DNA of 64,000 bases from NCBI RefSeq assembly GCF_054482525.1, contig NZ_CM137006.1. One strand, 5' to 3'. A program made the position numbers. This document shows, piece after piece, positions 38,833 through 41,800 of this stretch; within the stretch, counting starts at the first letter, position 1; every line of letters starts with the position of its first letter.

Positions 38833-41800
38833 GTTAGAGTCTTTCAGTCTGCGATGATGGGAAATCCCGGAGTGACTGAAAGACGTTTAAGTTATGAATG
38901 ATCGCTTTTTTTGCAAAATTGCTGTGCAGAAATACTAACCTTCGGGCAGGCGATCATTCATAAGCACTCTGCTTTTATTCCGATTAACTGTGGGTGGTTT
39001 GTTGGATAGAGTGCTTCCCTTACTGTATATATCGTTTCGCCCGCTTTTGCGGGTTTTTCTTTTCAAATCCCTTTCATTTCTCAGTGTAAAACTACGCCAT
39101 CCGTTATTTGCGGAGGTGAGGCTATGAAATCCATGGACAAAATTTCAACGGGCATTGCCTACGGCACCTCCGCAGGCAGTGCTGGCTACTGGTTTTTACA
39201 GTGGCTTGATCAGGTCAGTCCGTCACAGTGGGCTGCGATTGGTGTACTGGGGAGTCTGGTTCTGGGCTTCCTGACTTATCTGACAAATCTGTACTTCAAA
39301 ATCAGAGAAGACAAGCGTAAGGCTGCACGGGGAGAGTAATTCAATGACTCAAAACTATGAACTGATTGTGAAAGGGATCCGCAATTTTGAGAATAAAGTT
39401 ACGGTAACTTTAGCGTTACGGGACAAAAAACGCTTTGACGGCGAAATTTTTGACCTGGACATCTCGCTGGACCGTGTTGAAGGTGCCGCGCTGGAGTTTT
39501 ATGAGGCAGCAGCCAGAAGGAGCATCAGACAGGTCTTCCTGGATGTTGCTGCCGGGTTATGTGAAGGGGATGAGCAGTCGCCGGAAAAGCGCCCCGTAAT
39601 TTTAGAGGCGCAGAATGTGTGGATAACCTACAAAGGAAAGCTACCAGGAAGAATTACTGGTTCTCTGAAGACTCCTCCGGAATCACAACCTTAAGTCACT
39701 GACCGGAACAGATAAACCTGTCCGTGGGCAGAAACCGATAAATCCTGATAAATATCCATGAACGCAAAAATCAGATACGGCCTGTCGGCTGCCGTTCTGG
39801 CACTGATTGCCGTCGGTGCGCCCGCGCCTGATATTCTCGACCAGTTTCTGGATGAAAAAGAAGGTAACCACACAACGGCATACCGCGATGGTTCCGGCAT
39901 CTGGACCATCTGTCGGGGTGCCACGATGGTGGATGGAAAACCCGTTTTTCCCGGTATGAAACTGTCGAAGGAAAAATGCGACCAGGTCAACGCCATTGAG
40001 CGTGATAAGGCGCTGGCATGGGTGGAGCGCAATATTAAAGTACCACTGACCGAACCACAAAAAGCGGGTATCGCGTCATTTTGTCCCTATAACATTGGCC
40101 CCGGTAAGTGTTTTCCATCGACGTTTTATAAGCGGCTGAATGCTGGTGATCGTAAGGGCGCATGCGAGGCGATTCGCTGGTGGATAAAAGATGGTGGGCG
40201 CGATTGCCGCATACGTTCAAATAACTGCTATGGACAGGTTATTCGTCGTGACCAGGAAAGCGCATTAGCCTGTTGGGGAATAGATCAGTGAGCAGAGTCG
40301 CCGCGATTATTTATGCTCTGGTTATCTGCATCATCGTCTGCCTGTCGTGGGCGGTCAATCATTACCGTGATAACGCCATCACCTACAAAGAACAGCGTGA
40401 TAAAAAAGTCAGTGAGCTGAAGCAGCTGACCGCCACCATCGCTGACATGCAGCAGCGTCAGCGTGATGTTGCTGCGCTCGATGCAAAGTACTCGAGAGAA
40501 TTAGCCAATGCGAAAGCTGAAAATGAAACTCTGCGCGCTGATGTTGCCGCTGGTCGTAAGCGCCTGCGGGTCAATGCCAGTTGCTCCGCAGCCGTGCGTG
40601 AAGCCACCGGACCCACCAGCGTGGATAATGCAACCAGCCCCAGACTGGCAGACACCGCTGAACGGGATTATTTCACCCTCAGAGAACGGTTGATGACGAT
40701 GCAGAAGCAACTGGAAGGGGCACAGCTATACATTCGTGAGCAATGTCTCAGATAAAAACCGGCCAAGGATAATCCGCTAAAGATTCGCCGGTGGCGAAAG
40801 AGAGCCAAGGTGTCAACCTACGCTATTACTTATGATAATGCAACAGACGAAGCGGGACATATTGGCGCATAACAAATCAGTGCAGGCTAACTGCAGGAAG
40901 AACTTAGGGCGTGAACGTAGAAAACCTAAGTAACGCACATTACATCTATAACGAGATGAAAGAGCTACAGCGACAGAAAGGTATACTGGAAAGTGGTGCA
41001 GGGCTTGGTGTGACAATCCAGTCTGCCTATCAATATAGTGCTTTTCTTGAGGCCATACGCCCGCATGCAGTTGCTGAACTTAACAGCCGTATTGAGGAAA
41101 AGAAATCCGCGCTGGTTAATTTGGGTGCTTCCTTCTCTATATACGAGCATAATAAGGCGGGTTGGAAACCCGCCTAAAGCACTTAGAAACTGCGTGGAGC
41201 TGTGGAAAGAATGGATGCCAGTTCTTCCTTCGATAAATCCCAGCTTCGATTTACAGCGTCAATTTTCTTAAACTCATCAAGCATTGCGTTATAGAGATGT
41301 TCTGTACGTGAATGAGTATTGGCAATGGGCTGTTTCTGTTCGGGGAAGCGATCAATTTTCTGATATGCCTCAATGATACTGAAGTAATCGCATTCATTAT
41401 TACCGTCGAAACCTGGGAGCTGAATTGCCCCATCATGTATTTTTAGATGATGGTCACGGACTAATTCTTTTTGCTCGTCATCACTAAGTTTCCTGAAAGC
41501 ATTGGAAAGTCCGCGATACATATTCAAGACAGCAGTAACAAAATCACGATCTTCTTTACTTGGTTCATCAACATCCAAATGTGAATATTCGGCCTTCATA
41601 ACCCAACCATTACCAGATGACACAGCATATTTAACAAGCTGTGGATCAATATCAGTTTCGATACCTAGGTGGATGGCAATGTCACATAACAAAATGGTAT
41701 TGATTTTATCTTTAATATCCATGAGTTAACCCTCTGAAGTAAAAAGTAATATCTACACCCGTTAGCTCATGAAGTCTATTGATCTGGCTCATATCAGCGG

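Follow-up and report, generated by a model that had tools for sequence, protein, structure and literature searches.

We analyzed a 64,000-nucleotide (nt) stretch of contig NZ_CM137006.1 from NCBI RefSeq assembly GCF_054482525.1, hereafter the window, and focused on the spacer at 38833–39123, which separates a cluster of tRNA genes from a holin gene. This part of the window forms the junction of the late genes in a lambdoid prophage of E. coli. A Q-type antiterminator gene (37633–38328) is followed on the + strand by a pR′-like late promoter (TTGCAA-17-TATATT, 38312–38340), which overlaps the end of Q, and by a tR′-like terminator (stem 38392–38415 plus a T run; pR′/tR′ region 38312–38421). Both were located by promoter and terminator scans, lie outside the element described below, and together would specify a short leader RNA of ~75 nt.

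Downstream of this leader, also on the + strand, the promoter scan identified a predicted sigma-70 promoter, pT (38485–38513), with the hexamers TTGCAA-17 nt-TATTAT and a G+C-rich discriminator, CCTGCGCCC. Its hexamers and their spacing are kept in related loci although the surrounding upstream sequence has diverged. Four tRNA genes follow on the same strand: a tRNA with a CAT anticodon (38523–38598; anticodon Met, tRNA-Ile in RefSeq, a homologue of ileZ), a TTT “Lys” tRNA with an argN-type body (38600–38676), tRNA-Thr TGT (38679–38754), and tRNA-Gly TCC (38758–38832). These calls come from ARAGORN, from Rfam (tRNA scores of 44–74 bits), and from the RefSeq annotation of an identical locus. 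The spacer begins at 38833, one base past the CCA of tRNA-Gly and on the strand of the array, which is the position of a 3′ external transcribed spacer (3′ETS). The predicted upstream promoter and the predicted intrinsic terminator at its own 3′ end, both of which recur in relatives, are the boundaries expected of such a spacer. The cargo is enclosed by its own predicted sigma-70 promoter and terminator and is placed between pR′/tR′ and the lysis genes, the organization that marks a moron.

The initial annotation treated the 290 bp between the tRNA genes and the holin as one spacer. We find instead two modules: the trailer of the tRNA unit with its terminator (38833–39063), and a holin leader (39064–39123, + strand) that belongs to the lysis module and lies outside the RNA element. 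Among matches in E. coli genomes, some (H45) cover only query positions 1–230 and others (H46) only 258–291; since the two types occur apart, the modules are separable. The holin leader carries the ribosome-binding site GGAGGTGAGG (39112–39121, + strand) and precedes a class II holin open reading frame (ORF) at 39124–39339 (+ strand, ATG at 39124), after which come a YdfR-like ORF, lysozyme, and Rz.

Structure of the trailer

An inverted-repeat search of 38800–39130 returned exactly three perfect repeats, which on the + strand form three hairpins, H1, H2, and H3. H1 (38839–38884) has a perfect 11-nt stem (38839–38849 / 38874–38884; z = −4.5) and a 24-nt loop, UGCGAUGAUGGG-AAAU-CCCGGAGU, with an inner GGG/CCC hairpin; its 11-bp stem had been recognized previously, with a span (38839–38883) one base short. 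H2 (38892–38963) has a perfect 14-nt outer stem (38892–38905 / 38950–38963), extendable to 16 bp on folding, and a 44-nt loop, exactly as initially annotated. It encloses a further hairpin, P2a, in which UUUUUGCA and UGCAGAAA pair around the 9-nt loop AAAUUGCUG, together with a mini-hairpin, CC-UUCG-GG (family form CC-UUYG-GG). H3 (38962–39016) had been overlooked in the earlier description of two stem-loops. Its perfect 9-nt outer stem (38962–38970 / 39008–39016; 37-nt loop, z = −3.9) leads through an internal loop to an inner stem-loop, formed by pairing of the near-invariant, G/U-rich sequence GGGUGGUUUGUUGGAU with AUCCGAUUAAC. The structured part between the last tRNA and the terminator, H1–H3, spans ~205 nt.

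An A/U-rich linker and an intrinsic terminator (39017–39063, + strand) close the tRNA unit. The terminator scan gives GCCCGC-TTTT-GCGGGT at 39039–39054, followed by the T run TTTTTCTTTT to 39063, in good agreement with the annotated span of 39038–39059. As RNA, GCCCGC-UUUU-GCGGGU with UUUUUCUUUU folds at −11.5 kcal/mol (z = −4.4), and its sequence has the features of an intrinsic terminator. The terminator is upstream of the holin ribosome-binding site, as described, at a distance of about 55 nt, so that “just before” was approximate.

The structure of the spacer is non-random and goes beyond chance. On the + strand the 291-nt spacer folds at −97.3 kcal/mol, compared with −72.2 ± 4.6 for 200 dinucleotide shuffles (z = −5.5), none of which folds as well. 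The single hairpins, folded alone on the + strand, have z values between −3.8 and −4.5, and the − strand of the spacer folds less well (z = −2.8). We calculate that chance alone would give ~6e-5 perfect 14-mer inverted repeats spaced within 60 nt in a 291-bp sequence, and ~4e-3 for an 11-mer.

Covariation and family architecture

The initial annotation had named a small structured RNA as one option and proposed covariance analysis and conservation in related phages as its tests. Both bear the option out: the stems are conserved in many phages, and all three keep their pairing through compensatory changes. A covariation model of the family, R1, scores 138.9 bits over 38888–39018 of the window. 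In an alignment of 36 sequences (A2), 95.6% of cells are paired, compared with 35–47% when the 3′ partner column is slid by 1–3 positions. Ten pairs in this alignment change on both sides, and none of 500 column shuffles reaches the observed pairing or covariation score.

Compensatory pairs in H2 occur at alignment columns 8/80, 16/72, 20/68, and 24/67, and at two positions of its stem U-A is swapped for A-U and G-C for U-A. The outer stem of H3 occurs as CACUCU/AGAGUG, CAUCUC/GAGGUG, and CACUCC/GGAGUG, with pairing kept in all. The 28 variants of the H1 stem include TC/GA to CT/AG, U-A to C-G, and A-U through G·U to G-C. Counts of G·U against A·C pairs are 179:33 and 228:50 (about 5:1) for a structure that was derived on the + strand; the excess of G·U, which is possible only on the + strand, points to an RNA of the + strand. 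The terminators and the tRNAs share this strand with the element.

H2 is the constant core of the family. H1 is optional and occurs in about three quarters of the loci; where it is absent, H2 starts 2–5 nt past the tRNA CCA. H3 is usually present, with other sequence in its place in a few loci. A small number of members lack P2a or carry a substitute for it, and elsewhere P2a shows a U·G to C-G change. A distant variant (L178, L179, and L191) combines H1, a different long hairpin of ~85 nt, and a terminator, without H3. It escapes detection by model R1, and its long hairpin has only the stem core GAGCGCUG/CAGCGCUC in common with H2.

Distribution and genomic context

The spacer is present in 539 of 5,426 complete E. 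coli genomes, with coverage of at least 80% in 522 and almost all copies at ≥95% identity. The copies are all chromosomal, with a median of one and a maximum of five per genome. A collection of phages yielded six records only (five phages), namely four near-identical temperate phages and HK639, whose copy has 76.6% identity and follows a truncated tRNA-Gly. Scans of viral contigs anchored on the H2 loop, H3, and the H1 loop returned well over 100 loci with ~85 distinct sequences. A scan with one genome per species found the element in Citrobacter sedlakii, Yokenella regensburgei, and Phytobacter ursingii; a Citrobacter-type query led to the Salmonella prophage Fels-1 (66.7 bits with model R1), and the window query against a plasmid collection led to the Salmonella record CP075030.1 (135 bits). 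The latter, from Salmonella Abortusequi (301,781 bp; our locus L210), is filed as a non-mobilizable plasmid and holds a complete lambdoid late region with Q, STnc100, the element, holin, endolysin, and terminase; this could indicate a phage-plasmid, or a stretch of chromosome that was misassigned.

All contexts of the element that we examined are phage late regions. The element comes immediately after the final tRNA of the array in ~90 of 111 oriented loci. This tRNA is usually Gly-TCC and in Yokenella Glu-TTC; the same placement is seen in Citrobacter. Its spacing from the tRNA is tightly held, with the H2-loop motif starting 76–77 nt past the CCA when H1 is present and 19–21 nt past it when H1 is absent. 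Most loci that seem to lack a tRNA keep a truncated 3′ remnant of one.

By strict criteria 45 of 69 distinct members have a terminator, mostly 20–50 nt past H3, and many of the remaining ones show weaker terminator stems on inspection. Across the family we count at least five terminator sequences that are unrelated to one another, and the terminator of the HK639 copy is annotated as such. A terminator is usual and its sequence has been replaced at least five times, which argues that it is a defined 3′ end, not a particular sequence, that is kept.

Other RNA modules share the interval between Q and the holin gene S. In HK639, STnc100 (RF02076) adjoins the element (L001 2754–2959); the Q-to-holin gap of Fels-1 contains three full or partial STnc100 copies (L209 1273–1486, 1687–1809, and 2810–3028), and L210 contains STnc100 at 2390–2603 and 2804–2926. 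The window is without STnc100. The Q–S interval is a mosaic of small RNA (sRNA) modules, each with its own terminator. In Fels-1 (NC_010391, L209 1860–2575) a moron ORF, STM0906.1n, encoding a probably secreted protein of 120 amino acids (aa), divides the element: H1 and part of an H2-like 5′ arm precede the ORF, and a complete H2 lies ~20 nt past its stop codon. A viral contig, L068, is arranged in the same way.

Two kinds of apparent relationship were dismissed. A dispersed repeat or miniature inverted-repeat transposable element (such as REP or ERIC) is inconsistent with a single R1 match in the 64-kb window and a median of one copy per E. coli genome. A set of low-G+C phage contigs (L005–L007, L024, L042, L069, L070, L078, L084, L085, and L087) shares only an exact 18-mer, TTTTGCAAAATTGCTGTG, with the element; by chance the collection should contain about two such matches, a number that relatedness among the contigs would inflate, and no other similarity was found.

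Comparison with known RNAs

The spacer (38833–39123) has no match in Rfam 15 at the gathering score, and at E up to 10 only noise is returned (ceN44, 15.3 bits; anti-hemB, 13.7; STnc540, 12.8). Rfam likewise returned nothing significant for the copies in HK639, Citrobacter, Yokenella, Phytobacter, Fels-1, and CP075030, with weak hits to istR at E = 0.28–0.42. The same scans detect the neighbouring STnc100, isrJ-type RNAs, and tRNAs, and the families that they cover include AgvB, AsxR, STnc100, Esr41, IsrJ/IsrK, tRNA-like RNAs, and tmRNA. A literal search of the literature for the loop-motif sequences gave nothing relevant, and a search for transcriptome or CLIP data sets from strains with the element likewise returned none.

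A close parallel in organization is the 3′ETS of the glyW-cysT-leuZ tRNA operon, 3′ETS-leuZ, the E. coli tRNA trailer that Lalaouna et al. in 2015 reportedly found to act as an sRNA sponge. Like the element, it lies directly past the last tRNA and extends to the intrinsic terminator of the operon; the biogenesis proposed here, release by tRNA 3′ processing from a constitutive tRNA promoter, would also be analogous. The two differ in that 3′ETS-leuZ has ~50 nt with a single-stranded pairing region, whereas the phage trailer has ~230 nt and three covarying hairpin domains, and their sequences are dissimilar. We know of no complementary sRNA for the phage trailer. In the virulent phage T4, the tRNA region also gives rise to RNAC and RNAD, small RNAs whose roles are unknown (PMC3014915, PMC9697503). 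These species 1 and 2 stable RNAs resemble the element as small structured noncoding RNAs (ncRNAs) beside a phage tRNA cluster, stability being a prediction in our case. They are unrelated to it in sequence and are processed like tRNAs, whereas the trailer is found in temperate lambdoid phages and has a terminator at its 3′ end.

The tRNA unit itself has a clear counterpart in the Shiga toxin (Stx) phage 933W, where the order is Q, pR′, tR′, pT, ileZ-argN-argO, terminator, stxAB ... S. This supports the earlier statement that the spacer occupies the position of the stx locus of Stx phages. The window promoter is homologous to the 933W feature annotated “pT; putative tRNA promoter”, with the same layout, a nearly identical sequence, and an identical −10 hexamer and discriminator; the first tRNA (ileZ) is nearly identical, and both units lie between Q, pR′, and tR′ on one side and S on the other. 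In 933W, however, the terminator comes 14 nt past the third tRNA (argO) and is followed by stxAB, without an H1–H3 trailer; model R1 gives no match in 933W. In the window the unit instead continues through ~205 nt of hairpins to a terminator, with the holin 60 nt later. Toxin genes are absent, as initially noted, no ORF of more than 45 aa overlapping the spacer. We rejected the view of the region as an empty stx slot; it makes up the 3′ portion of a tRNA unit that is complete in itself.

The element shares with AgvB/AsxR (RF02702, RF02703), STnc100/PasD (RF02076), PasA/PasC, and IsrJ/IsrK a place in the sRNA-rich Q-to-S interval and a terminator at the end; it differs from AgvB/AsxR, STnc100/PasD, and IsrJ/IsrK in that no Rfam family matches it even at E up to 10. 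AgvB and AsxR are 51–60 nt long, convergent, and antisense downstream of a moron coding sequence (PMC4104026). Identity with AgvB, AsxR, or the Pas RNAs was rejected because positions, strands, and sizes differ (Tree 2014; Pearl Mizrahi 2021; the 2026 Pas preprint). The Pas sRNAs of enteropathogenic E. coli E2348/69 were set apart by locus and strand: PasB (NC_011601 ~1466260–1466305, − strand) lies between a tail assembly gene and J, and PasC (~1290831–1290864, − strand) abuts a SASA esterase gene. PasD is related to STnc100 (preprint 10.64898/2026.05.13.724894), and is disfavoured because STnc100 does not match the element. A put-type antiterminator RNA of the HK022/HK639 kind, a two-hairpin RNA closely following an early promoter that renders RNA polymerase resistant to terminators, was considered since HK639 carries the element; location and the frequent terminator argue against it, because the element sits in the late region after tRNAs and its terminator must work in the lysogen. 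A kink-turn or C/D-box in the H1 loop (UGAUGA ... CUGA), assessed by inspection only, could not be fitted to the 11-bp stem and was dropped.

Additional features of the locus and the window

The region of the pR′ leader at 38344–38417 has a weak resemblance, under the gathering score, to isrJ (24.5 bits) and isrK (22.7 bits); for isrJ, the equivalent position scores 93.5 bits in the Citrobacter locus L127 and 34.6 bits in HK639. The second tRNA of the unit (38600–38676) is a homologue of argN. Across loci its acceptor, D, and T arms are constant and its anticodon loop is highly variable, with UCU (Arg), UUU (“Lys”), GAA and AAA (Phe), and UUA (a reader of stop codons), as well as several 6-nt or otherwise odd loops that ARAGORN leaves unnamed. 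The UUU type, to which the tRNA of the window belongs, has an unusual C at position 33, and the window copy scores only 44 bits as a tRNA. This variability could reflect decay, or diversification of phage tRNAs, for example to escape anticodon nucleases.

Other Rfam matches above the gathering score in the window are sok (34784–34958, + strand, 110 bits), DicF (29672–29723, − strand, 76.7 bits), C4 antisense RNA (3261–3349, − strand, 62.2 bits), and EFASI RNA (1701–1828, − strand, 100.8 bits). Two apparently host tRNAs, Asn (24060–24135, − strand) and Ser-CGA (25127–25216, + strand), may mark a prophage boundary.

A model for the trailer RNA

From these sequence comparisons, the trailer is best described as an undescribed, tRNA-operon-derived ncRNA family of prophage late regions, for which the comparative support for the structure is good. 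The initial annotation is confirmed as an observation, and its interpretation is supported only in part. We hypothesize that the prophage tRNAs belong to an autonomous unit, a moron, of which 38833–39063 is the 3′ external transcribed portion, and that this portion is released as a stable ncRNA acting in trans; we give this reading an even chance of being correct. According to this model, pT would drive the four tRNAs, and transcription would run on through H1–H3 and stop at the terminator (39039–39063), which would keep the holin silent in the lysogen. Ribonuclease (RNase) P, acting at the tRNA 5′ ends, and RNase E or exonucleases, acting at the 3′ end of tRNA-Gly, would then free the trailer as a discrete ncRNA of ~0.2 kb. 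Such an RNA should be stable because its 5′ end is closed by a stem and its 3′ end carries the terminator hairpin and a U tail. It could be made both in the lysogen, where it is probably expressed constitutively from the predicted tRNA promoter, and in lytic growth, as part of the Q-modified late transcript, and would act as a regulatory, sponge, or protein-binding RNA.

Co-transcription, release by processing, stability, and any activity in trans are what we infer here. The anatomy of the element, its conservation, covariation, strand, linkage to the tRNA array, and frequent terminator, and the absence of a coding signal, are observed directly in the sequences compared. A role in trans is favoured because the terminator is usually kept despite turnover of its sequence, because the element persists where the adjoining tRNA decays, and because other units often separate it from the lysis genes.

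Several observations weigh against this reading. The covariation events are few and partly at the level of clades, and the sequences are not independent. Unpaired columns are on average no more conserved than paired ones (0.88 vs 0.91 and 0.72 vs 0.82), so that a conserved single-stranded seed is not apparent as a general feature; the idea that loops are more conserved than stems fails on unbiased column sets. The RNA would be much more structured than typical Hfq-dependent sRNAs of the seed type. Loss of modules, with H1 absent, P2a deleted, or H3 replaced, fits a loose structural requirement as well as a precise function in trans. No convincing promoter of its own was found in the tRNA-less loci, where a candidate picked by eye in L068 has a 14-nt spacer, and the element is consequently not an independent gene. 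GcvB mimicry or an anti-GcvB role, prompted by a common 9-mer, GUCUGCGAU, and a G/U-rich stretch, was rejected; in local alignment to K-12 gcvB and in the energy of a duplex with it, the element does no better than shuffles. Within the window, sequences complementary to the P2a loop or to the H3 G/U strand are no more frequent than expected by chance.

The ompA 5′ hairpin is the model of a protective stem, and the T7 RNase III sites and lambda sib are models of processing sites. By analogy with these, the element may act in cis on the late lysis transcript, as a 5′ stabilizer or, through its long stems, as a site at which RNase III or RNase E would part the tRNA precursors from the lysis mRNA. 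In its stabilizer form, excision of the tRNAs would leave the lysis mRNA with a 5′ monophosphate, and H1 or H2 would shield it from 5′-end-dependent RNase E. The window copy is indeed immediately upstream of the holin, its stems begin 2–7 nt past the tRNA CCA, the 16-bp outer stem of H2 stacked on the 8 bp of P2a amounts to about two helical turns, and selection appears to act mainly on pairing. Yet a terminator usually separates the element from downstream sequence, and in HK639 an STnc100 copy and two more terminators lie between it and the lysis genes; in Fels-1 the interval is ~430 bp and includes an STnc100 copy. 933W and other Stx phages manage without the element, and a simple protective stem leaves the near-invariant P2a loop and the H1 loop unexplained. 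We therefore regard a cis-acting role as unlikely, if still worth serious attention. A tRNA-processing signal had also been suggested; the trailer does abut the tRNA 3′ end, yet in 933W a 14-nt trailer followed by a terminator is all that tRNA maturation requires. Alternatively, the hairpins and the terminator may form a reinforced stop or decay signal, an insulator against read-through from pT into the holin in the lysogen. Judged by its near-consensus hexamers and tRNA-type G+C discriminator, pT would be strong and constitutive, the lethal holin gene starts 60 nt past the terminator, and the terminator stem is weakened in many window-type variants, so extra help might matter. H1–H3 are, however, not terminators, because no U tracts follow them; 933W insulates stx and S by a plain terminator 14 nt past argO, and the element is far from the lysis genes in many loci. 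Insulation, which would not account for the conservation of the internal sequence either, is in our view very unlikely.

Explanations that do not involve a functional RNA have to address the same comparative data. A conserved DNA linker at a mosaic boundary, used in homologous recombination between lambdoid phages, or a recent hitch-hiker beside tRNA genes with stems that survive through chance and recency, would fit the abrupt switches of flanking sequence at the edges of H1 and H2, the Fels-1 moron ORF inserted between the partial H2-like arm and H2, the truncated tRNA remnants at many junctions, and the near-identity (≥95%) of most E. coli copies. Such a linker would not be expected to show compensatory double changes in all three stems, with several distinct variants per stem, or pairing that collapses when partner columns are slid, and an excess of G·U over A·C is meaningless for DNA; we consider it improbable. 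The initial annotation had further suggested a remnant of an excised cargo gene, such as a toxin or moron gene, and a small protein gene is a related idea. Two phage records, ON470583.1 (18694–18825) and ON470580.1, annotate a 43-aa “hypothetical protein” on the − strand across H3 and the terminator (window equivalent 38935–39066), and HK639-type members have a minus-strand frame that runs uninterrupted through the core. In the window type and elsewhere in the family, a stop and a frameshift break this frame; the start of the annotated ORF falls in the terminator, which differs among members, and RefSeq annotates nothing there. Given the lack of conservation, the annotated protein is probably spurious. 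More generally, frames are broken between subtypes, and variable columns are spread over codon positions as 28/23/23, without three-base periodicity. A protein-coding gene was rejected on these grounds, and a remnant does not agree with a conserved module in unrelated flanks that lacks ORF conservation and codon periodicity. We assign a gene or its remnant hardly any probability.

Returning to the trailer as an RNA acting in trans, a bolder form of the idea is a new class of phage “tRNA-companion” RNA: a stable RNA of ~0.2 kb, made from the repressed prophage, that would work by shape and not by a seed. Host proteins that it might bind or decoy include an RNase, a defence enzyme that modifies or cleaves tRNAs, and ProQ/Hfq; the effect would be to protect or adjust the tRNAs expressed with it, or the RNA metabolism of the host, as a temperate counterpart of T4 RNAC and RNAD. 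We put this forward as a speculative proposal, with a rather low likelihood.

Implications for prophage biology

The interval between Q and the lysis genes is a known hot spot for toxins and regulatory sRNAs, including AgvB, AsxR, STnc100/PasD, and IsrK. To this set the element would add an abundant, covariation-supported family that is undescribed in databases and is carried by ~10% of sequenced E. coli and by prophages of Salmonella, Citrobacter, Yokenella, and Phytobacter. For phage annotation, it corrects probably spurious “hypothetical protein” calls in existing records and supplies a covariance model. It would also illustrate concretely how the trailer of a tRNA operon can develop into an RNA with several domains, and may shed light on why phage tRNA clusters carry extra stable RNAs.

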